Virus record (IMG/VR): IMGVR_UViG_2645728028_000002
Span: 32,001 to 96,000 of that record
Reading direction: 5' to 3' (one strand)
DNA from: a virus
Taxonomy: Duplodnaviria; Caudoviricetes
Length of the DNA stretch: 64,000 bases
Positions 10,206-21,905 of the stretch are shown one piece after another. The first letter of the stretch is position 1. Every line of letters begins with the position of its first letter. Both the position numbers and the translations under genes were made by a program. The notes under the pieces are model-generated. The model was not told the DNA's origin and made no database searches. It worked only from the letters and a program-made list of their open reading frames with translations.

Positions 10206-11435
10206 TTAACCCCTCCTCATGATGAACTTCTCATATTCTTCTTCATCGATTGACTTAAATTTATATCCACCGTAAAACTTATCACTATCTAGCAGACTGT
10301 TAAACTGTGAAGTTGAAAACCTAGTCGTCATAGTTAATCCGCTATCCACTAACCACTCTCTTGCCTCATACTTATATTTAAAAACATTTATTAACTCATT
10401 TTTTTCATTTACAGCCGAACAGTAATGTTCAATTTTATTACTAACCGAATTGTTCCTTTTTATTTTATAACCCCATTCAGTTAGTGCTTTTTTTAAAACT
10501 TCATTAGTAACTCCTTCTATATTTATTAGTTTTACTATATTACTTATCGAAATTTTATCCTTGGTGTAATGTTTGATTATTTCATCTTTTAGATCAATGA
10601 GTTGACTAATTTTATCTTTGGTACATTTTCTAGGTTTATATGTTTTCTTTTTCCTTTTACATATTTTAGCTGATTCCTTCGGTGGCTTTTTAATTTCTTT
10701 CTTACCGAATTCTTTTAACTTATCTTTAGTCCATTTATCGTTTACTTCATAGTGATGTATCCCTTTTTTCTCGCTTTTTATGAAATCATGATTTAGAATT
10801 AATATAAGGTCATCTTCGCTCTTCTTATTTAAACACCTCTTACACATTATTTGCTTACTCCGTAATCGTTCAAAGTTATTTCCACAAATGCAGCAAAGTT
10901 TCCTGCGTAACTTCAAGTGACTTAGCGGACGAAAGATTAATTTTTCATGTGGATTATTAAACTTATGTTTTTTAGAGAAACTTTTACTAATAGTTAAAGC
11001 CGTATATCCTGACCAGATAGAAGCATCGGCAATTGATTTAAAGACAAAGTTATTGTCTATACATATAACTGGCACAGAATTTCTTTTGGATAAAGAATCC
11101 TGCACATTTCCACCTTCAATCATATTATAAAAATCCTCATTATTAACTGCATCATAGAAACTTATCCAATATTCCTCTTTTTCATTTAACTCAACTTCAG
11201 AAGATGATAGGTCAATAATTCTCCTCCTGAAATTCTCTTTTCCATACTTTTTTATTGCATTATTTAAATGGTGTCCGCTACCTAAGTATGATTTCCATCT
11301 TGATCCATTGTCAATTTTTTTCTGACCTATGTATTTCTTATTATTTATCATGTTAGTTGTAATATAAATAAAGCCATATGCACCATTAAAATCTTCAATA
11401 CAATTGTAGTTCGTTTCTTCTAAGAATGTTGCCAT
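10206..11435 (-). CDS. Free-standing GIY-YIG homing endonuclease
   Basis: GFIYITTN...KKYIGQ, YLGSG, FYN; NUMOD-like FKSIADAS segment. Confidence 0.85.
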   Translation of the reverse strand: MATFLEETNYNCIEDFNGAYGFIYITTNMINNKKYIGQKKIDNGSRWKSYLGSGHHLNNAIKKYGKENFRRRIIDLSSSEVELNEKEEYWISFYDAVNNEDFYNMIEGGNVQDSLSKRNSVPVICIDNNFVFKSIADASIWSGYTALTISKSFSKKHKFNNPHEKLIFRPLSHLKLRRKLCCICGNNFERLRSKQIMCKRCLNKKSEDDLILILNHDFIKSEKKGIHHYEVNDKWTKDKLKEFGKKEIKKPPKESAKICKRKKKTYKPRKCTKDKISQLIDLKDEIIKHYTKDKISISNIVKLINIEGVTNEVLKKALTEWGYKIKRNNSVSNKIEHYCSAVNEKNELINVFKYKYEAREWLVDSGLTMTTRFSTSQFNSLLDSDKFYGGYKFKSIDEEEYEKFIMRRG

Positions 11436-11649: not shown

Positions 11650-11906
11650 TCTATGATGTTATTAATTTATTTAAACTGGTACAAATATGTAATTTGTATA
11701 TATGTATTATATTAAATTATTTTATATTAAGCAATAGGTTTTTTAAAGAATAATAATTTTTCTTTTTATTTTTTAATTGTGGACTTGCAAACAATTGTTC
11801 TGTCATACATAGATATGACTATGGTAATAAAACCTCAGTAAAATATCTTGTCTGTCTACAACTGTATGACAACTGCATGACACCAGTAATAAGAGGAGGG
11901 AATTGC

Positions 11907-12740
11907 GTGAAGCTTGGAGTCGATTCTGGAAATTATCGTGTGAAAATTTGTTCTGAGGACGGACTAATGGACTTTCATTCAGCAATAGGGGAGGGGAGGG
12001 AGTTAAAACTTCAGCAAGTTCATGGGGAAGATGATATGTGGTTTGAGTATGAGAGCGAGTATGGATTTGCTGGATCACTTGCGCTTTATGAATCAGAGTT
12101 TGGAGGAAGTATACTTGGTGACAATAAAGCCCACAGAGACACACTACTCAGAGTTCTTATTGGTATCAACAGATATTGTCAAAGGTATCAAATAGAAGAA
12201 ACCGTATTTGACATAGTTATTGGTCAGCCTATCTCAAGCCACACTATAGAAGCAAAAGAAAAATTAAAGAAGATGATAAAAGGTCAGCATACAATTTCAG
12301 TGAATGGGATTGAAAAGACTTTTAGTATTAATAAGTGTGAGGTAGCTGCAGAAGGAGTTTCTTCTTATTGGAGTGGTAATAGACCAGAGGGCTTAATAAG
12401 AATCTTAGATATTGGTTCAGGAACAGTAAATTTCTCAACTGTTCTAAATGGAAAGTTTATAGATAAGGACTCAGGTACATTACCTTTCGGTGTCAATACA
12501 AATAAATCAAATAACCTTAACGCCCTATGTAGGGGAATAGTAACTCACACATCAAAGAAATGGAATTCCAGCGATAAGGTATTTATTGTTGGAGGTATTG
12601 CAGAAACCATCCTTCCACTTCTAAAAGAATACTTCCCACAAGCTGAAATACTTTATCCAATATTTAATCAGCAATATGTATCCCCAATTTATGCAAATGC
12701 AATTGCATTCCATATGATTGCGGTGAACATCTATGAGTAG
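11907..12740 (+). CDS. parM: ParM/StbA-family actin-like ATPase
   Basis: GVDSGN phosphate-1, AEG, LDIGSGT phosphate-2, VGG adenosine motif; GTG start after AGGAGG. Confidence 0.85.
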   Translation: MKLGVDSGNYRVKICSEDGLMDFHSAIGEGRELKLQQVHGEDDMWFEYESEYGFAGSLALYESEFGGSILGDNKAHRDTLLRVLIGINRYCQRYQIEETVFDIVIGQPISSHTIEAKEKLKKMIKGQHTISVNGIEKTFSINKCEVAAEGVSSYWSGNRPEGLIRILDIGSGTVNFSTVLNGKFIDKDSGTLPFGVNTNKSNNLNALCRGIVTHTSKKWNSSDKVFIVGGIAETILPLLKEYFPQAEILYPIFNQQYVSPIYANAIAFHMIAVNIYE

Positions 12741-12960
12741 AAAAGTTAAGTCCGTTTCTTTCAACTTAAATGACCCTTGGGAATTGGAGATATATGAATA
12801 CACATTAAAGTATCCCAACTTTTCGTCCTTTGTTAAGAGGCTGATTCAGAGTTCAGTCGGTGGAGTTGCACCTCAGAAGACAAGTGCTAATACGCCATCT
12901 AATCATAACTCAATTATACAACCAGAAGTAAACAAAGACTATATGAGACAACTAATCTAA
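12733..12960 (+). CDS. Putative ParR-like ribbon-helix-helix adaptor
   Basis: Overlaps the parM stop; KSVSFNL beta strand followed by NFSSFVKRLI helix. Confidence 0.6.
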   Translation: MSRKVKSVSFNLNDPWELEIYEYTLKYPNFSSFVKRLIQSSVGGVAPQKTSANTPSNHNSIIQPEVNKDYMRQLI

Positions 12961-12985
12961 ATTATATTTCTATATCATTTTATTA

Positions 12986-13122
12986 TTACCCGATTCTTAC
13001 CCGTTCGTTACCACATGATTGTCTAAATCGTTACCCAGATGATTACCCGACTGATTTTACGCCTTGGGTAATTACCCGATTCAATGGGTAAGCAAGAAAT
13101 GGATGGTTTGATATTTGGGTAA
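12986..13122. repeat. TTACCC iteron cluster (parC-like)
   Basis: TTACCC or close variant at 12986, 12997, 13008, 13031, 13043, 13057, 13072; inverted GGGTAA at 13066, 13086, 13117. Confidence 0.75.
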
Positions 13123-13165
13123 CGAAACAAAATTTAATTTTACTAAAAAAGTGAGTTGAGATTAC

Positions 13166-13735
13166 GTGTATAAAATTACATCTAGATATCTGCAGCAAGA
13201 ATCTTTCCGTTCTTCTCCACATAAAGGAATAGATTTTAAAATGGAAATTGGTGAGCCGATTCGATCAATTAAATCTGGTCAAATTCATCTTGCTGATTAT
13301 GGCAATACGAATGCAGGGAAAACGGTTTTTGTAGAGTGGGAAGATGGAAGAACTGCAATATATGGTCATTTGAATGAGTTTGCGGTAAAAGAAGGTCAAC
13401 ATGTAAATGCGGGAGATTTAATTGGATATGCAGGAAATACAGGCTTTTCAACTGGCAGTCATCTTCATTTTTCAGTAAAAGAAGGATCTAAACATATAGA
13501 CCCTTCTCCATATATGAACGATATCCAGCATATGAATGATCCGTCTTATTTTGCGCAAGTATCTTCAGATGTCAAAGTTTCATTCTTTGATTATTTTCAG
13601 CAGCATATGGACTTAATTGGAACTCAACTAACTGACCTTAAAGTAAACTTTGTTCACTTTCTAGCCTTATCTGATTACTCTCCAATCATAAAGTTGCTGC
13701 AAAATGTCATACAATTTATCTTTTTCAATATTTAA
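13166..13735 (+). CDS. M23 family peptidase
   Basis: HKGID, YGHL, GNTGFSTGSHLHF. Confidence 0.9.
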   Translation: MYKITSRYLQQESFRSSPHKGIDFKMEIGEPIRSIKSGQIHLADYGNTNAGKTVFVEWEDGRTAIYGHLNEFAVKEGQHVNAGDLIGYAGNTGFSTGSHLHFSVKEGSKHIDPSPYMNDIQHMNDPSYFAQVSSDVKVSFFDYFQQHMDLIGTQLTDLKVNFVHFLALSDYSPIIKLLQNVIQFIFFNI

Positions 13736-13970
13736 ACGGTCAAAGTCAACCTTTGTTAATTTATCAAATTCAACTTGCCAAGCTAGTCTATCATCAGTTG
13801 TCCATCCAAACATTATGCTCACCTCTTAGGATTTCTGTTGTCATTTGCACTTTCAATTATTTCATCATAAAGTTCATCTGCTTCATCTTTTTTTGTAACG
13901 TATATGAGCATTTGTAGTCCTCCTGTGAGTTATTTACTCATATCATTTACTAAAGGGGTGATTTGTATAC

Positions 13971-14393
13971 ATGGAAAAACATAACGAAGTTGTCATTTAC
14001 CTAAAAGACAGTGTTATCACTGATATAACTAATTATATCGAGTATCAGAAGTTAAAAAAACTGAATTTCGATGGAAACTACAATCATACAAACATGGAAG
14101 AATTTATTGTTGGTTGCGTTTGTCATTATCTAAGACAACTAAAGTATCAGATTGATCTTTCTGGTATTAATGACCTTGGCAAACCTTACCGACTTAAAAA
14201 CCGATTTAAGGAGTATATGGATAAACATGGAATAATACCTGCAGACTTAGCGAAGCAGACAGGGATTGGAGCTTCCAATATTAGTTTGATATTAAAAAAT
14301 AAAAATCAGCCAAGTCTTGATTACTTCCTTCGCATATGGATGGCTTTAAAATGCCCACCCTTAGATAAGATTCTCTATCGTGAAGAGGAATAA
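13971..14393 (+). CDS. XRE-family HTH regulator
   Basis: C-terminal LKNRFKE...DLAKQTGI...NQPSL HTH. Confidence 0.8.
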   Translation: MEKHNEVVIYLKDSVITDITNYIEYQKLKKLNFDGNYNHTNMEEFIVGCVCHYLRQLKYQIDLSGINDLGKPYRLKNRFKEYMDKHGIIPADLAKQTGIGASNISLILKNKNQPSLDYFLRIWMALKCPPLDKILYREEE

Positions 14394-14487
14394 AAAGAAA
14401 AGTTTTTAAAACTGCATAGGACAATTTTCAACGAGAATATCATCTGAATACAATACAACATACACAACAAACAAGGAGGAATACAGC

Positions 14488-14670
14488 ATGGGAACAACGT
14501 TGATTGTAGTGTCTGCTTTGAAGATTGCTGGAGCATGTGGGGTGGGGTTAGGTGCTTCTGCATTAATGAAAGCTTTTCATGAGTATGAGTTCAATTTTAA
14601 AAAGAAAGGTGATAAAAATGACAACAATATCGGTAAATCTCTGCGTGAAAGAGCCGAAGGATTACGTTAA
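14488..14670 (+). CDS. Small membrane protein
   Basis: AAGGAGG RBS, hydrophobic N-terminus. Confidence 0.55.
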   Translation: MGTTLIVVSALKIAGACGVGLGASALMKAFHEYEFNFKKKGDKNDNNIGKSLRERAEGLR

Positions 14671-15136
14671 TTATCACCTTTCTTCTTTTAAGGTGAATGA
14701 AAATTTTCCGAATCAAATTGTAAGGGAGGTGATGAATCTTTCTCAAAAAGAAAAGAGGAAATTTGGGAAGGTAGTAAAGGTATTTGTTGCAACAACAATA
14801 AGTTTTCTGAAATTGTCATCCGTATCAATGGCAAATGCATTGAACAATACTCAATCTCAAACAGTAATTACATCAGGAATCCCCACAGACCTGCTCGAAC
14901 CAATAATGGAATTAATCAAACTGGCTTTAGGAGGATCATTACTGCTTTCAGTAATACTTTTAATAGCAGCAGGAACAATGAGACAGTTCAGGAAGAAGAA
15001 GGAAGCAAGCGAATGGACGACAGATATAATCAAGGGTTTTCTGCAAGTTCTAATCGCAACGCCTTTAATATTTCTTCTATATTACGTAGTTACTTTACTC
15101 CTCGGAAACTTCACTCAATTTCTAAAGCCATTCTAA
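14618..15136 (+). CDS. Membrane protein, TrbC/VirB2 pilin-like topology
   Basis: Signal-like segment, then two hydrophobic helices separated by RQFRKKKE; start at MTTIS after AAAGGTGA. Confidence 0.5.
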   Translation: MTTISVNLCVKEPKDYVNYHLSSFKVNENFPNQIVREVMNLSQKEKRKFGKVVKVFVATTISFLKLSSVSMANALNNTQSQTVITSGIPTDLLEPIMELIKLALGGSLLLSVILLIAAGTMRQFRKKKEASEWTTDIIKGFLQVLIATPLIFLLYYVVTLLLGNFTQFLKPF

Positions 15137-16263
15137 TTCCAGTTACAGCAATTTCATCAACATTCTTGTTTACTAAATTAGCACATGCAGAGTCATTAAA
15201 AGATATTGTATTCCAAAAGAAAGGTGTCCTCACAAATGATTTTTCCGGTGCAGATCAAACTACATGGTTTGGAATAGGAGAAATAGTAAAAAATATGTTA
15301 GCAGCAATAGAATGGTTAAAAGATATTAAACAACATATTTATGACTTTTCAATTGATATATTTTCATTTGTTTTTGAAATGCTAATGCTAGTTGGATTAC
15401 AGACGCCCAGTTTTTTATTCAACAATAGTTACACAGTCAATACCACCATGACATTCTCAATGATTTCAATAAGCATTGTCATTTTACTTACAATTTATGA
15501 ATCTATTATGCAAATGTTAAATAAAGTATCTAAGCAAAGATATACTAAGTTTTCTGATATTATTAAACGTTTTCCTATTGCAGTAGGAATAACTGGATTT
15601 ACGCCATTTTTATTTCAACAAGGTTTTCGATTAATAAATAAACTAACAAGAGGGATTACTAGTCTAGGTGGGAATTTATTTAAAGAAAACAATTTAAACC
15701 AAGTCATTTCATTGAGTGGTATTGATGTATTGGGAATGATTCTGTTTGATGTTGTGGCATTGGGATTGCTTATTCCTATTTTGCTACAGGGAGGGCGCAG
15801 GTGGTTCGATCTATTTGCATTGTGTACGGCTGCCCCTTTAGCGCTTACAGCATGGATATTTGACCGCCACAGACATTTACATGCTCAATGGTGGAGTAAT
15901 GTCAAAAGACTTTCTATTATTCAACTGGTAATAGCAACTTTCATTGTACTGATGGGTATTTTCTTATATGGAGCAAGATTTATATCAGCAGAAATGTGGG
16001 CTTATAAAGTCTTGGTGATCCTCGGAGCACTTTTCCGCATCGCAAATCCTCCAAATTTTGTTAAGTCTTATACAAGAGGAGAAGAAGATGTTGTTGGAAT
16101 GTTCGACACTTATAAGAAAACATTTGCAGGAGTATACAATACAATTTCATTAAATAATTTCAAACCACTCAATTTTTATAGGAGTCAAAAAGCAGTGAAC
16201 ATCCAAAGAACAGCTTTAAGAGCAAAGCATGGTAAAAGATTCGTAGATAATTTATTAAAGTAG
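15013..16263 (+). CDS. Polytopic membrane protein, VirB6/TrbL-like
   Basis: About 7 hydrophobic segments; RRWFDL...APLAL...W pattern reminiscent of Gram-positive VirB6-like proteins. Confidence 0.5.
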   Translation: MDDRYNQGFSASSNRNAFNISSILRSYFTPRKLHSISKAILIPVTAISSTFLFTKLAHAESLKDIVFQKKGVLTNDFSGADQTTWFGIGEIVKNMLAAIEWLKDIKQHIYDFSIDIFSFVFEMLMLVGLQTPSFLFNNSYTVNTTMTFSMISISIVILLTIYESIMQMLNKVSKQRYTKFSDIIKRFPIAVGITGFTPFLFQQGFRLINKLTRGITSLGGNLFKENNLNQVISLSGIDVLGMILFDVVALGLLIPILLQGGRRWFDLFALCTAAPLALTAWIFDRHRHLHAQWWSNVKRLSIIQLVIATFIVLMGIFLYGARFISAEMWAYKVLVILGALFRIANPPNFVKSYTRGEEDVVGMFDTYKKTFAGVYNTISLNNFKPLNFYRSQKAVNIQRTALRAKHGKRFVDNLLK

Positions 16264-16271
16264 GTGAAGGA

Positions 16272-18518
16272 ATGTCGTTCAGCAGGATTATAAATAAGAC
16301 TCCTTTAAAAAATGAAAAGTCGAATGTTTACTATGTGGATGAAATCAATTCTAAGGTGATTAACGAAGTCATACAGTCGAGATTTATCTCAGAAGGGGTT
16401 TACACTTTAGAACAATTATCTCTATCAGAATACAGCGAAAGATATGTCATATCACCTTCTTTTGATAAACTTCCACTAACAAAATCTGAAAAAGATTGGC
16501 AGTTTGATTATAAGGAGGTGACTGCCTATGAGTTAGAATTATCTAAGCCTTTCTTTCATCCATTAGATACTAAACAAGTTGTTAATCTATTCGAGTTTAT
16601 ATCTAACTTAAAAAATATAACCGTATTAACTCAGGCATTAATATGCAAAAGATGTGATAACTGGCGTGAAATAGCAATCTCAATGTATGAGGATTTCTTA
16701 AAAGGAAATAGCACAGTATCAGAAATCAAATTAATTAGAAATATCCAAGCTAAAACATTGAGCGTGTTGAATAAAATCAGCAATTATGCTATTCAAAAAG
16801 ATCCAATTGAGGAAGTTGAAAATAAAATACTGCAGAACGCATACAGGTTTGAGTGCAGATTTTTATTGCCAGAAGAAAAGCATAGCAATTACTTTGAGAA
16901 AGAGTTGAACAAACAGTTAGATAAAATTGGATTATTTAATGAATTAGTTTTAAGAAAGGTGAACAATAAGAAGCAATTTGTCAAATTTATTGAATATAGA
17001 GAATTTCAGACAGAACTGGTAAATCAATTATTGAGTGAAAGTGAGATATTCAGTTTACTATGCGATACACAAACTAACCCTGTAGCTATAAATGCAAATC
17101 TCAAGCAATCTAAACCAACAAGTATCATTAAAACAATCCAAAAAAATCATTATCTTAATTCAGCCATATCCTTAATGCCAACAAAGCAAAGAGAGGAGGA
17201 GAATGTAAATTCAGAAACACTTGATCAGTTACAGTTTGCTTTTAAGCGTGTAAAGATTACGGATAAGAAATTAAAGATATTAGATGTGTTTCAGGGAACA
17301 ACTTTAATTAAGGTGCAAATGACCATTCCCCAAGATGTGAACTATTCCAGTATTCAAAAAAACCTAAAGAACATTCAGGCTGCATTAGGCAATGAGAATA
17401 TTAGCTTGGAAATTGGGGATAAACCAGACACAATTAACTTTTATCTTCCTAGAGAGAAACGAGATATTTTGTGGCTTAGGAATATTTTAGAGTCAGAGCA
17501 ATTCCAAAAGCATTGTGAGAATGTGGAATTACCATTCATTATTGGTGAGAATACGCATGGGGAATTGTTGTTAGGTTGTCTTGCTGATTTGAAACATATA
17601 TTAGTAGCTGGTGCAACAGGATCAGGAAAAAGCGTATTCCTAAATATATTGTTGATTTGCTTATTAACGTCAGTGCCTCCTGAATTATTAAATATTGTAT
17701 TAGTTGATCCTAAACAAGTTGAATTTACTCAATATGAAGGTTTTCCACAGGTAAGTAAGATTGTTACAAATCCGAATAAAGCAGTTGAGTTAGTTCATTC
17801 TTTATGCGAAGAAATGGAAAAGCGATATAAAATATTGGCAGAGGCAAAGGTGAAGAATATTATCCAATACAATAATAAAAATGAAACTAAGATGCCCTAT
17901 GTAATTTGCATTATAGATGAGTATGCTGACTTGATGATGACAAATAACGAAGTGGAGAATTATGTAGTTAGGCTGAGTCAGAAAGCGAGAGCTGCAGGAA
18001 TTCACTTGGTATTAGCAACACAGAAACCACTGAGCACAATTGTAACCAGTGTATTGAAAGGAAACTTACCCTCAGCAATTAGTTTCAGGTTGAAAACTTC
18101 ATCTGACTATACAACAGTATTTGGTAAGGGGATTCCTTACACATTATTAGGAAAAGGAGATGGGGTGTGTAAGCTAGAAGGGCAACAAAGAGAATATGAA
18201 CGTTTCCAAACTCCTGTAATGACATTAGATGAAAATGAAGAAGAGGAAATTTATGAAAAGCTGAAGGATATGTTTAAAGATGCTCCTGTAATGGATTTTG
18301 AAATTATCAAGGAGGAAAGTCAGATTGATCAATTGAAGAGAATCATTGCTACTCATAATGAAGCCAGAATATCCGAGCTGCAAAAACTAATGGGTATAAG
18401 AATCAATGCCGTATCTGATTTAGTGAAAGAACTGGTTGAAGAAGGCTGGCTTGAGAAACAGGGGAAGCGATATGAAATTGTAGCAGGTGAAGATGAGTTA
18501 TCCAAGTGGAGAGAGTGA
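16272..18518 (+). CDS. FtsK/SpoIIIE-family DNA translocase
   Basis: HILVAGATGSGKS, DPK, IIDEYADL, RAAGIHLVLATQ, LLGKGD; C-terminal wHTH; no N-terminal membrane domain. Confidence 0.9.
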   Translation: MSFSRIINKTPLKNEKSNVYYVDEINSKVINEVIQSRFISEGVYTLEQLSLSEYSERYVISPSFDKLPLTKSEKDWQFDYKEVTAYELELSKPFFHPLDTKQVVNLFEFISNLKNITVLTQALICKRCDNWREIAISMYEDFLKGNSTVSEIKLIRNIQAKTLSVLNKISNYAIQKDPIEEVENKILQNAYRFECRFLLPEEKHSNYFEKELNKQLDKIGLFNELVLRKVNNKKQFVKFIEYREFQTELVNQLLSESEIFSLLCDTQTNPVAINANLKQSKPTSIIKTIQKNHYLNSAISLMPTKQREEENVNSETLDQLQFAFKRVKITDKKLKILDVFQGTTLIKVQMTIPQDVNYSSIQKNLKNIQAALGNENISLEIGDKPDTINFYLPREKRDILWLRNILESEQFQKHCENVELPFIIGENTHGELLLGCLADLKHILVAGATGSGKSVFLNILLICLLTSVPPELLNIVLVDPKQVEFTQYEGFPQVSKIVTNPNKAVELVHSLCEEMEKRYKILAEAKVKNIIQYNNKNETKMPYVICIIDEYADLMMTNNEVENYVVRLSQKARAAGIHLVLATQKPLSTIVTSVLKGNLPSAISFRLKTSSDYTTVFGKGIPYTLLGKGDGVCKLEGQQREYERFQTPVMTLDENEEEEIYEKLKDMFKDAPVMDFEIIKEESQIDQLKRIIATHNEARISELQKLMGIRINAVSDLVKELVEEGWLEKQGKRYEIVAGEDELSKWRE

Positions 18519-18937: not shown

Positions 18938-21121
18938 ATGGAAGAAATTATTGAATTGAAAATTGTCCCTGTCAGAGAGTTTTTCCACAACAATGATTAT
19001 GGTATTTATGTTTGCGAAACTGATGAGCCGAATAAAGTAATGCTTAATAAATTCCATAATAATTTTTCAATGAAGGGCAATACATTCAAGTTAAAGTTAG
19101 ATAAAGAATATAATGCAAAATTGGTTGAGCGTGAGGATAAAAAATACGGCACATATTATGAAATTGTATCTATCTTTGAGAATATGCCAACAGGCAAGGA
19201 TCAGCAAAGAGGATATTTGTTAAGTGTCCTAACTGAGAAACAGGTTAATGCTATTTATAAAGCATATCCAGACGAGGATATTATTGAACTATTCAAGACA
19301 GACAAGTTTGATGTGAACAGGGTAAAAGGAATTGGAGAAAAATCTTATGTGAAGGTTAGGGATAAGATTATTGAAAACTTGGAGTTTCAGCAAGCTTTTG
19401 AATTCCTCAGTCAATATGGAGTTACGAATAACCTGATTATCAAACTGGTAAAACATTTTAAATCTGCAGGATTGTTAATAAAAAAGATGAAAGAGAATCC
19501 TTATTCGATTACTGATATATCGGGAATTGGATATAAAAAAGCTGACACTATAGCAATGAGCATGGGTTACGATCCAAGTGGTGAATTCAGAATTGACGCT
19601 GCTATCGAATATGTAGTTGAAGAAGAAAGCAATAAAGGTAACACTTATGTAACTACAGACAAATTAGTTTTCCAAGTAGAGGACTTGATCAGTGTTGCGG
19701 AGTCATTAATAAATAATCAAATAAAAAATACTTCTAATCTAATTGTATCAGGTGATAGAGTTGCATTAAAGAAAAATTACGATGCGGAAAAGTTTATCTC
19801 TAAGAAATTGAAATCAATTTTAAAAAACAGCTCTTCTCTTAATTTTGATGTTGAGAAATTCATCTTAGATCAAGAAGAGAAAAGAGGTATAAAATTAACA
19901 GACCAGCAAAAATCGTTTTTCTATAATATTAAGGATCATAATGTTAACTTACTTGTTGGTTACGCTGGAACTGGTAAAAGCCAATTAACTGCCTTACTTA
20001 TTGACTTATTAGAGCAATTGAAAATTGGTTATAAGCTCACAAGTCCAACCGGAAAAGCAGCTAAGGTAGTTAGCAATTATACAAATAGAACGGCTGAAAC
20101 CCTTCACAGAGCAATAGGCTTAGGGCGTGAAGGAAGAGAAGATGAAATTAAGTATATTGAAGAAGAATTTGTAATTGTTGATGAAACATCAATGGTTGAT
20201 GTCCAATTGTGCTCAAAACTATTAAAAAAATGTAATAATGAAAATTTAAGAATTTTGTTTATTGGGGATGATTTTCAAATCGCTTCAATTGGGGCAGGCA
20301 GGTTACTATATGATCTGATACAAAGCAACAGGATTCCAACTACCAAAATTGATATCGTTTTCCGTCAAAAAGAAAATAGCATACTCGATATAGCAACAAA
20401 AATCAGACAAGGTAAGAAGTTTCTTAATAATAGTGATGAAGGAATATTTAAGTTTAGTGAAAATTGCATAGTAGCAAGTGTGCCACAAGATAAAATGGAG
20501 GGCGGATATAAGTACTATCTTAAAGAGATGCTAAATTCTTTCTCCAGTGATGAGATTACTATTACTACCCCTACTAAAAAGTCAAAGTTGGGTACAGTTG
20601 AAATAAATAAGCATACTCAGGAATCTGTAAATCCGAATGATGGATCTAAGATAGAAAAACAATTTGGATATGATGGTGTTGTGTTTAGAGAAGGAGACTT
20701 GGTTATTAATGCAAAGAATACCTATAGAATACAAGATATTCACTCAAATGAAATTGATATAGTTAACGGTGATGTTGGAAAAATAATAAAGATTGATCTA
20801 GAAGAAGAGGAAATATGGGTTGATTTTGATTTTGCTACAATCCCATTTGACTACGCCATGTTAGGGCAATTGCTTCATTGTTGGTCTATGACGATACACA
20901 AAATGCAGGGATCTTCTAATAAAGCCATCTGTGTAATTGCGGATAAGGCGCATAAATTTCAATTAAATGCAAACCTACTTTACACTGCTGTCACAAGAAG
21001 CGTTGATTATCTTGTAATATTAAGTCAAGCATCCACTATCAATTTCGCATTAAAGAAGATTGCTAGTTTACAAAGAGATACATTTTTAGGTGAATTTTTA
21101 AGGGAGGATGGAGATGCCTAA
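18938..21121 (+). CDS. recD2: RecD2-like SF1B helicase
   Basis: HhH repeats, GYAGTGKS, PTGKAA, VDETSM, GDDFQ, FRQ, TIHKMQGS, YTAVTR. Confidence 0.92.
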   Translation: MEEIIELKIVPVREFFHNNDYGIYVCETDEPNKVMLNKFHNNFSMKGNTFKLKLDKEYNAKLVEREDKKYGTYYEIVSIFENMPTGKDQQRGYLLSVLTEKQVNAIYKAYPDEDIIELFKTDKFDVNRVKGIGEKSYVKVRDKIIENLEFQQAFEFLSQYGVTNNLIIKLVKHFKSAGLLIKKMKENPYSITDISGIGYKKADTIAMSMGYDPSGEFRIDAAIEYVVEEESNKGNTYVTTDKLVFQVEDLISVAESLINNQIKNTSNLIVSGDRVALKKNYDAEKFISKKLKSILKNSSSLNFDVEKFILDQEEKRGIKLTDQQKSFFYNIKDHNVNLLVGYAGTGKSQLTALLIDLLEQLKIGYKLTSPTGKAAKVVSNYTNRTAETLHRAIGLGREGREDEIKYIEEEFVIVDETSMVDVQLCSKLLKKCNNENLRILFIGDDFQIASIGAGRLLYDLIQSNRIPTTKIDIVFRQKENSILDIATKIRQGKKFLNNSDEGIFKFSENCIVASVPQDKMEGGYKYYLKEMLNSFSSDEITITTPTKKSKLGTVEINKHTQESVNPNDGSKIEKQFGYDGVVFREGDLVINAKNTYRIQDIHSNEIDIVNGDVGKIIKIDLEEEEIWVDFDFATIPFDYAMLGQLLHCWSMTIHKMQGSSNKAICVIADKAHKFQLNANLLYTAVTRSVDYLVILSQASTINFALKKIASLQRDTFLGEFLREDGDA

Positions 21122-21905
21122 ATTTATTGATTTGACTGGAGAAAAGTTTGGGAAACTGACGGTGAAATACAAAATTGATACTGACTCGAACCGCACGTTC
21201 TGGTTCTGTGAGTGTGATTGCGGTGGAAAGAAAGAGGCTAGGTCAGATGCATTAAGGAATGGAACAACTACTCATTGTGGATGTGTTGGTTTAGGTACAC
21301 ACAATAAAACGGGTCATAGGTTGTTTAATATTTGGCAAGGTATGAAGGATCGTTGCTACAATACAAACAGTAAAGATTACAACAGATACGGTGGTAGAGG
21401 AATTGAAGTGTGTCAAGAATGGATAGATGACTTTATGAACTTTTACAATTGGGCAATGGAGAATGGTTATAATCACTCTTTGTCTATAGACCGAGTTAAT
21501 GTCAATAGAAATTACGAACCTAACAATTGTAAATGGGCTACTCCAGAAGAACAAGCAAACAACACAAGAAAAAATAATTTAATCAAGGTAAACGGAGAGG
21601 TTAAATCAGTATCTCAATGGGCAAGAATTTCAGGTGTTTCAAGATATGTAATTAAGAAAAGGTATGCTGAAGGTGTTAGAGGTAGTGATTTGTTTCTCCC
21701 AGTTGAGGAAATAAAAGCTCAATATCAATCGGGAGTACCTTATATTAAGTGGGATAAGAAAAAGGAGAGATGGAGAACAGAAGTTAAATATAATGGGAAA
21801 AAGCATTTTGTTGGAAATATTAAAGACCTAGATGATGCAATTAATAAGCAAAATGAATTCAAAGAAAGATTAATTAAACAAAGGGAGGAGGGAGAGGTTG
21901 AATGA
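21108..21905 (+). CDS. HNH homing endonuclease with C-terminal AP2 domain
   Basis: DLTGEKFGKL, WFCECDCG, YGGRGI, SIDRVN..YEPNNCKWAT..QANN; AP2-like C-terminus. Confidence 0.85.
   Translation: MEMPKFIDLTGEKFGKLTVKYKIDTDSNRTFWFCECDCGGKKEARSDALRNGTTTHCGCVGLGTHNKTGHRLFNIWQGMKDRCYNTNSKDYNRYGGRGIEVCQEWIDDFMNFYNWAMENGYNHSLSIDRVNVNRNYEPNNCKWATPEEQANNTRKNNLIKVNGEVKSVSQWARISGVSRYVIKKRYAEGVRGSDLFLPVEEIKAQYQSGVPYIKWDKKKERWRTEVKYNGKKHFVGNIKDLDDAINKQNEFKERLIKQREEGEVE

Follow-up and report, generated by a model that had tools for sequence, protein, structure and literature searches.

The window analysed here is a 64,000-nucleotide stretch of DNA from the virus record IMGVR_UViG_2645728028_000002. Between positions 13166 and 18518 it carries a compact gene module that may move double-stranded DNA (dsDNA) across a membrane. 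The module comprises a peptidoglycan hydrolase, a regulator, three membrane proteins, two of which are related to the VirB2 and VirB6 subunits of type IV secretion systems (T4SSs), and an FtsK-type dsDNA motor. The initial annotation had listed these parts correctly, and we found every one of the genes present and intact. It had also described them as co-oriented. This holds for the named genes, which all lie on the plus strand, but the run is interrupted between the peptidase and regulator genes by two tiny minus-strand open reading frames (ORFs; about 51 and 30 amino acids (aa), 13667..13911), apparent from the ORF list and the sequence, which diverge from the regulator gene. Small minus-strand genes are called likewise in two distant SPbeta-like prophages used for comparison (L015 and L016, the latter from Metabacillus).

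The window corresponds to G000:C19:2249609-2313608 of a 5.67 Mb genome with a GC content of 40.5%, and the module sits in a low-GC island (~31–33%) of ~141 kb (~C19:2216500-2358000). The portal and terminase genes of this island are phage genes, and its large terminase shares 53% identity with those of SPbeta and SPR and 77% with its counterpart in Psychrobacillus phage Perkons. The host element is therefore a giant SPbeta-like prophage integrated in the chromosome, not a free phage genome. No near-identical DNA for the stretch was found in the phage collection. Among public sequencing runs containing the stretch, no RNA run was listed and two metagenome DNA runs matched small shares of it only.

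The gene at 16272..18518 (plus strand) encodes a soluble FtsK/SpoIIIE-type translocase of 748 aa (Pfam FtsK_SpoIIIE, 1.7e-42; phrog_3551, 3e-198). Its layout comprises a DUF8128-like N-domain (residues 8-268), a disordered linker (269-289), an alpha/beta motor (294-680) and a C-terminal winged helix (684-748). The AlphaFold2 (AF2) model has a mean pLDDT of 84, and the N-domain forms a soluble alpha/beta fold with a pLDDT of about 90. The sole hydrophobic stretch of the protein lies inside the ATPase core, after Walker A, and the ATPase therefore lacks a membrane anchor, as the initial annotation had proposed. The motor superposes on E. coli FtsK (2ius_A) over 368 residues with a Z score of 41.6, a root-mean-square deviation of 2.8 Å and 27% identity; the corresponding Z scores are 27.7 for TcpA, 17.9 for VirB4 and 14.4 for TrwB. 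Moreover, the Walker A/B residues G447, K453, S454, D549 and E550 are invariant in 31 homologues. The winged helix matches helix-turn-helix (HTH) models of the MarR/IclR type and not Pfam FtsK_gamma at E <= 0.01, a domain that a distant member of the ATPase family (P0182) does carry.

A structural comparison of the N-domain (residues 1-268) matched it to clusters of DUF8128 (PF26449), with TM-scores of 0.72–0.76 by query. DUF8128 is the N-terminal domain of ATPases with TraG-D_C and TrwB_AAD_bind and without membrane helices, found in candidate-phyla bacteria and Bacillota. A hidden Markov model (HMM) of the N-domain recovered 97 clusters in 1.84 billion proteins, nearly all of them FtsK proteins of ~750 aa, and its weakest matches, P0195 (1e-9) and P0202 (2e-7), carry a precomputed PF26449 assignment. 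A direct Pfam search with the N-domains of the window protein and seven homologues gave no PF26449 match, and a sequence search of the PDB gave nothing credible. When N-domain profiles were compared by hhalign, no similarity was detected to the VirB4 protein of C20, a plasmid contig of the same genome (probability 0.05%), or to a 906-aa ATPase of SPO1-like phages. A tblastn search of plasmids with the N-domain returned none at 1e-3, though the plasmid ATPases described below do align with it.

Upstream of the ATPase gene lie the two genes that link the module to T4SSs. The first, at 14618..15136 on the plus strand (start at 14618 or 14579), encodes a VirB2/TrbC-like propilin-type protein (phrog_3528, 8e-29). 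The window protein itself has no Pfam match; it is 34% identical (E 2e-13) to a paralogue on C20, which scores 35.7 bits on Pfam TrbC/VirB2 (cut-off 27.9). PGAP applies the name TrbC/VirB2 to the copy on a Niallia plasmid, whose Pfam TrbC score is 31 bits. Common to the nine members aligned are a long leader with a basic stretch, a hydrophobic signal, an A-x-A site, helix 1, a loop and helix 2. The loop bears the motif W-x-x-(D/E)-I-I-K-G, which reads EWTTDIIKG in the window.

The second gene (15013..16263, plus strand) encodes a VirB6/TrbL-like polytopic membrane protein of 416 aa (phrog_3750, 2e-71). It matches Pfam TrbL_4 at 3.9e-4 and 20.3 bits, under the 27-bit cut-off, and TrbL_4 is matched by 10 of 22 homologues (best 1.6e-9) and TrbL by one. 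Some homologues are named "conjugal transfer protein TrbL family" by NCBI. Its C-terminal tail is basic and conserved. The AF2 model is of moderate confidence (pLDDT 63). In a Foldseek search of the PDB with this model, the top five matches were all R388 TrwI/VirB6 (probability 0.96–1.0, E 9e-3 to 9e-2), and those beyond the top five had probabilities of <=0.2. Neighbours in the ESM Atlas belonged to TrbL, TrbL_3 and CtnDOT_TraJ clusters. The pilin and VirB6 labels, which the initial annotation had based on topology only, are thus now backed by homology to TrbC and TrbL_4 and by structural matches to TrwI/VirB6.

The VirB2-like and VirB6-like genes are interlocked. The start codon of the latter is embedded in conserved Glu-Trp codons of the former, producing a 124-nt overlap (15013-15136) that is fixed in three of the four loci compared (the window and the virulent phages phiNIT1 and Hoody T); on C20 the codon is embedded likewise and the listed overlap is longer. 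A Shine-Dalgarno-like run precedes the embedded codon. This arrangement suggests translational coupling of the two genes; a fusion by programmed -1 frameshifting is conceivable.

A third membrane protein, encoded at 14488..14670 (plus strand) behind a strong ribosome-binding site, has 60 aa, one N-terminal transmembrane helix by hydropathy and a basic charged tail. Its homologues align at the same position in L015, L016, a further locus (L012), Hoody T and phiNIT1. Upstream, at 13971..14393 (plus strand), lies the gene of an XRE-family regulator of 140 aa with its HTH in the C-terminal half (Pfam HTH_26, 7.7e-07; HTH_3, 2.3e-05), and a homologous regulator is found upstream of the module on C20, on Bacillus paranthracis and Niallia plasmids, and in L015 and L016. 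The interval between regulator and operon holds a putative control region (14414..14454, plus strand) that consists of the 14-mer GCATAGGACAATTT at 14414-14427 and an overlapping sigma-A-like promoter match at 14425-14454. The same 14-mer occurs upstream of the homologous operon in L016 and is common to these two loci only; it may be an operator of the shared XRE regulator. Promoter patterns of sporulation sigma factors were not consistently matched upstream of the operon in ten homologous loci.

The first gene of the run (13166..13735, plus strand) encodes a predicted M23 (LytM-type) peptidoglycan endopeptidase of 189 aa (Pfam Peptidase_M23, 4.5e-29; phrog_7767, 2e-57). The protein consists of the catalytic domain and a conserved hydrophobic C-terminal tail. 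Both zinc-binding motifs, HxxxD and HxH, are present, and the catalytic residues H19, D23, H68, H99 and H101 are invariant in an alignment with four homologues. No signal peptide was found. The gene is syntenic in phiNIT1, L015 and L016, and it is absent from Hoody T and beside the plasmid copies of the module (C20 and three non-mobilizable plasmids). We also considered a reading of the locus as a SpoIIQ/SpoIIIA "feeding tube", which was dropped: the M23 protein scores 43.7 bits against the SpoIIQ model (cut-off 250), reflecting the shared domain only, and the polytopic protein has no Pfam match to Spore_III_AE.

We then compared the neighbourhoods of homologues. The gene order small helix protein, VirB2-like protein, VirB6-like protein and FtsK is kept in the virulent Bastillevirinae phages phiNIT1 and Hoody T, on C20, on three plasmids typed as non-mobilizable (a 293 kb B. 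paranthracis plasmid, a 121 kb Niallia plasmid and one of 250 kb, labelled Arthrobacter citreus, with a spore-protein gene), and in L015 and L016, where identity is 31–36%. The two prophages keep the whole run of M23 peptidase, antisense ORFs, HTH regulator, small helix protein, VirB2-like protein, VirB6-like protein, FtsK and the RecD2 helicase that follows. Among 50,697 phage records, the N-domain was found in 158 and the VirB6-like protein in 162, and the two sets break down by organism in the same way. Overall, the minimal set recurs at 20–40% protein identity in ~160 phages (Bastillevirinae), several plasmids and distant prophages. Phage Perkons is not among the VirB6-like matches, despite its 77% identical terminase, and none of the 13 plasmid matches was recognised as pXO16, whose tip locus was considered as a possible further instance of the system. 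In the host family the module is rare and patchy (9 of 269 genomes), as would be expected of a mobile cassette. Every named carrier is a replicon larger than 100 kb from a spore-forming member of the Bacillaceae. This restriction would fit entry into the forespore, and could equally reflect limited gene flow.

The initial annotation had reported neither relaxase nor VirB4 at the locus, and a genome-wide search with six families (AAA_10, TraG-D_C, Relaxase, MobA_MobL, Replic_Relax and Rep_trans) bears this out: none matches inside the prophage, at the sensitivity of those families. AAA_10 was matched on C20 only, apart from weak matches in chromosomal FtsK and SftA-like genes, and TraG-D_C matches were confined to C20. 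Relaxase, MobA_MobL and Rep_trans had no match anywhere in the genome. Replic_Relax was found at three chromosomal sites, all far from the prophage, two of which adjoin short FtsK-like genes. These two pairs of a short FtsK-like gene (~450 aa) and a MobC-type Replic_Relax gene, at G000:C19:1441886-1443074 and G000:C19:4103294-4104533, resemble the mobilisation modules found in integrative mobilizable elements.

C20 (108 kb) probably represents a conjugative plasmid. Its T4SS region (C20:18000-37999, L020) encodes a VirD4-like coupling protein, TcpC, TcpE, an AAA_10 VirB4 and a hydrolase with lysozyme-like and NlpC/P60 domains, and its own copy of the module lies at ~60–65 kb, ~30 kb from this T4SS. 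A primase-type gene is also present on C20, as is an integrase elsewhere on the contig.

The origin of the membrane genes is suggested by a phylum-level sample, in which core TrbL_4 proteins occur in clusters with relaxase and VirD4 in two Bacillota genomes, one with a VirB4-like and the other with a VirB11-like (T2SSE) ATPase. The membrane genes of the module therefore derive from such systems, although its close homologues were never found in relaxase and VirD4 clusters. By hhalign, the profile of the VirB6-like protein gave no significant match to one core TrbL_4 sequence, and the small protein upstream of the core TrbL_4 gene reached a probability of only 20% against the VirB2-like profile.

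A sister module was detected in phage 0305phi8-36 and on two large metagenomic contigs. It comprises a ParM-like protein, VirB2-like and VirB6-like proteins, a tiny ORF, a DUF8128 ATPase and a Replic_Relax protein. Its VirB2-like genes were recognised by hhalign at 98.4% (0305phi8-36 ORF204) and 98.7% (metagenomic locus L018), and its VirB6-like genes at 99.7–99.8% in the two metagenomic copies, ORF203 of 0305phi8-36 being detected by tblastn only (E 1e-7). The phage locus (ORF200-204, with the ParM-like ORF207 upstream) resembles the module in its ParM-like neighbour, membrane pair, tiny ORF and DUF8128-type N-domain. It differs in its ATPase, which is of the coupling-protein-like and not of the FtsK kind, and in the MobC-type Replic_Relax protein encoded next to it. 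Replic_Relax belongs to the MobC relaxase superfamily, which pairs with VirD4-type coupling proteins (PMC5357655). Given this composition, the VirB2-like/VirB6-like pair is used with DNA-processing partners of the conjugation type. Two alternative motors therefore accompany the same membrane pair and N-domain, either a coupling-protein-like ATPase with a relaxase, or an FtsK alpha/beta motor with a winged helix and no relaxase. Among the comparative arguments, none speaks more strongly than this alternation for a cassette that processes and moves DNA.

SPO1-like phages offer a further variant, seen in CampHawk (L021:2935-8460), with ParM, several tiny ORFs, the 906-aa ATPase and a Replic_Relax protein annotated "plasmid replication-relaxation". 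The 906-aa ATPase is related to the DUF8128 ATPase of 0305phi8-36, and no VirB6-like gene was seen at the CampHawk locus. A pair resembling a coupling protein and a MobC relaxase in a classic virulent phage appears to be unstudied.

The module is framed by partition and replication genes. Directly upstream, where the initial annotation had placed a ParMRC-like cassette, we identified a ParM-like actin (ALP) partition ATPase (11877..12740, plus strand; Pfam ALP_N, 1.7e-17; phrog_691 partition protein, 5e-46), followed by a small gene of 75 aa in the ParR-like position (12733..12960, plus strand), which overlaps the end of parM and matches phrog_8966. From its position we infer a ParR-like adaptor function. 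Between this gene and the M23 gene, dense TTACCC(G) direct and GGGTAA inverted repeats can be read from the sequence (12984..13124, no assigned strand). Most simply, this array is a candidate parC centromere of the adjacent ParM cassette; a role as loading site of the translocase seems less likely. A ParM-like gene also lies upstream of the module in Hoody T and in the counterparts of 0305phi8-36 and CampHawk. In the two comparison prophages, ParM is replaced by a TubZ-type tubulin cassette (L015:6863-7960 and L016:6544-7641), a non-homologous replacement of the partition motor. Downstream of the ATPase gene, a RecD2-type helicase (18938..21121, plus strand; Pfam AAA_30, HHH_RecD2 and SH3_13) is probably the first of the replication genes and not part of the module; it follows ftsK also in L015 and L016 and does not in phiNIT1 or Hoody T. 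At 10206-11435 and 21108-21905 the region is flanked by GIY-YIG-like and HNH genes of the homing-endonuclease type, as is usual in large phage genomes.

With the parts identified, conserved as a unit and devoid of VirB4 and relaxase, we favour, with a little better than even confidence, the view that the module is a self-contained, T4SS-derived apparatus moving dsDNA across a membrane, and that it is a cassette of large Bacillaceae replicons, namely Bastillevirinae myophages, SPbeta-like prophages and megaplasmids. In this proposal, the XRE regulator would gate an operon of the 60-aa membrane protein, the VirB2-like protein, the VirB6-like protein and the ATPase. The VirB2-like protein would be inserted in the membrane and processed at its A-x-A site, and together with the VirB6-like and small helix proteins could form a membrane platform or channel. 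As for the motor, we infer its docking, its direction of pumping and its substrate: the helix-free ATPase would dock on the platform through its DUF8128-like N-domain and act as a hexamer, in which the C-terminal winged helix would select the DNA of the element and the alpha/beta motor would pump it as duplex. If duplex is pumped, no relaxase or nick would be needed, as with Streptomyces TraB. The M23 endopeptidase, where present, might locally open peptidoglycan cross-links, and the upstream ParM (or TubZ) cassette might bring the DNA to the site.

Where the DNA would go is a separate matter. Passage into the forespore across the sporulation septum and passage into the sister cell across the division septum seem about equally likely. 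A bolder version of the proposal holds that a VirB4- and relaxase-independent T4SS descendant, with a VirB2-like/VirB6-like conduit and a docked FtsK motor, passes dsDNA genomes of phages and megaplasmids across a septum without virions, either into the forespore (spore hitch-hiking) or into a neighbour in the cell chain. We put this version forward only tentatively, as a possibility rather than as an expectation.

Several observations weigh against a transfer apparatus. The constant company of partition (ParM/TubZ) and replication (RecD2) genes fits intracellular DNA handling equally well. In known systems, both the extraction of pilin and the assembly of the channel depend on VirB4. VirB4 is regarded as the signature subunit of all T4SSs known to date (PMC12857230). 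Moreover, since C20 holds a complete canonical T4SS besides its copy of the module, the latter is probably not merely a substitute for an ordinary conjugation pore. The M23 peptidase lacks an export signal and accompanies neither the plasmid copies nor the module of Hoody T, which makes it accessory. A skewed recognition motif was not found either: a scan of the prophage arms for skewed 8-mers returned purine-rich coding-strand words only, and counts of the B. subtilis SRS, E. coli KOPS and L. lactis KOPS over the prophage gave no candidate motif (the B. subtilis SRS octamer has 2 and 1 copies on the two strands). Finally, the window proteins themselves fall below threshold in Pfam, and their VirB2/VirB6 assignment depends on homologues together with a model of only moderate confidence.

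The explanation that best withstands comparison with the transfer apparatus, and which we nevertheless regard as unlikely, is that the module serves intracellular DNA handling only. The membrane proteins would tether the FtsK-type motor at the membrane or septum, where with ParM or TubZ it would clear, decatenate or position the copies of a large replicon, be it in growing cells, in the carrier state or in lytic replication, and no other compartment would receive DNA. The placement of the module, always between the partition cassette and replication genes, speaks for such a role, as do the similarity of the motor to chromosomal FtsK, its closest relative, the size of the carriers, every one of which exceeds 100 kb, and the fact that C20 is already equipped with a T4SS for conjugation. 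In addition, actin-dependent unstable lysogeny is reported for Bastillevirinae phages of B. pumilus (Yuan 2015). However, a simple tether leaves unexplained why homologues of both VirB2 and VirB6, which in T4SSs belong to the translocation stalk and pilus base, should have been recruited. It also does not account for the linked peptidoglycan endopeptidase, nor for the sister module, in which the same membrane proteins accompany a coupling-protein-like ATPase and a MobC relaxase.

It is improbable that the module is a mobilisation helper, in which the FtsK-like ATPase would act as a TcpA-type coupling protein feeding a resident conjugative T4SS, as in integrative mobilizable elements, with the VirB2-like and VirB6-like proteins as adaptors. 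FtsK-related coupling proteins are indeed common in mobilizable elements of Firmicutes (PMC5357655), the sister variant pairs its ATPase with a MobC relaxase, and C20 carries T4SS and module together. Yet a helper would hardly bring VirB6 and VirB2 homologues of its own, and the FtsK version comes without a relaxase. Furthermore, the module is carried by ~160 virulent phages whose hosts need not possess a T4SS, and the prophage-bearing chromosome has no VirB4 of its own.

We give very little credence to an exclusion or defence device, whose membrane proteins and ATPase would block or expel incoming phage or plasmid DNA. The category that PHROGs assigns to the ATPase family ("moron, auxiliary metabolic gene and host takeover") and the accessory nature of the cassette, illustrated by the absence of Perkons from the VirB6-like matches, would agree with it, but the steady placement next to partition and replication genes is atypical of defence islands, and virulent phages, which gain less from exclusion, have kept the module. 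Least credible of all is a decayed, functionless remnant of the T4SS of a conjugative plasmid or integrative and conjugative element (ICE): core TrbL_4 proteins do occur in complete relaxase and VirD4 clusters with a VirB4-like or VirB11-like ATPase, but the genes are all intact, the catalytic and Walker residues are invariant, the minimal set recurs at low identity across the ~160 phages, several plasmids and distant prophages, and the N-domain occurs in just 97 clusters, nearly all of ~750 aa. The related concern raised with the initial annotation, that the module is ICE debris whose homologues always sit with VirB4 and relaxase, likewise fails, because phages and plasmids carry the cassette as a conserved and intact unit from which both are consistently absent.

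Compared with known systems, the proposed transfer apparatus shares features with several. It is like Streptomyces TraB, a conjugative dsDNA translocase with Spd proteins, in its FtsK-like alpha/beta motor with a C-terminal winged helix, in the absence of relaxase and VirB4, and in its presumed duplex DNA substrate. TraB has membrane helices of its own and is not known to involve VirB2 or VirB6 homologues, whereas the motor of the module is soluble, has a DUF8128-like N-domain and is encoded beside VirB2-like and VirB6-like proteins. No clt-type repeat was assigned here, and Bacillaceae phages and plasmids take the place of actinomycete plasmids as carriers. TraB is presented as an FtsK-like hexameric dsDNA motor and treated as a coupling protein acting alone (PMC12857230). 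Minimal transfer systems consisting of an FtsK motor and membrane proteins are emerging, with examples in Streptomyces (PMC12857230) and pELF2 (PMC13492992).

The canonical Gram-positive T4SSs (pCW3 Tcp, ICEBs1 Con and that of C20) share with the module a VirB6-family protein, a wall hydrolase, small membrane proteins and an FtsK-related ATPase such as TcpA. Three of their components are missing from the module, namely VirB4 (AAA_10), a TcpC/VirB8-like gene and a relaxase. The hydrolase of the module is of the M23 type, that of C20 being lysozyme-like with NlpC/P60, and its ATPase keeps the full FtsK alpha/beta motor and adds a winged helix. These canonical systems are not known to have a VirB2/TrbC homologue, which the module possesses. 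FtsK and SpoIIIE themselves are the best structural match of the motor and likewise end in a winged helix, which in the module is a putative DNA-reading domain. The module ATPase differs from them in that it has no N-terminal four-helix membrane domain and its winged helix does not match FtsK_gamma.

Part of this picture was already on record, as automatic annotation names some homologues TrbL or TrbC. A "SpoIIIE homologue" was described in 21 Bastille-like phages, near plasmid-segregation genes, by Asare et al. in 2015 (PMC4528723). We found that it belongs to the same family as the module ATPase, with 36–39% identity. Since ~2013–2015 it has been treated as a lone sporulation-related gene of unknown role (PMC4528723; genome announcements). 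We found no paper linking the FtsK of Bacillus phages to VirB2-like or VirB6-like genes or to a DUF8128-like domain.

A widely conserved cassette with VirB2 and VirB6 homologues, in which one FtsK-type duplex pump replaces VirB4, VirD4 and relaxase, would test the rule that VirB4 is indispensable and would join the world of T4SSs to that of TraB and SpoIIIE. It would also give a testable role to the "SpoIIIE homologue" of Bastille-like phages, unexplained for a decade in phages that are considered for biocontrol. The module is small (four or five genes) and present in B. subtilis phages, and is thus experimentally tractable. It bears on the means by which virulent phages and large plasmids survive sporulation or move along chains of cells; if the bolder version of the proposal is true, phages would have a third way to spread or persist, and the module would stand for a new, minimal class of DNA secretion machine.

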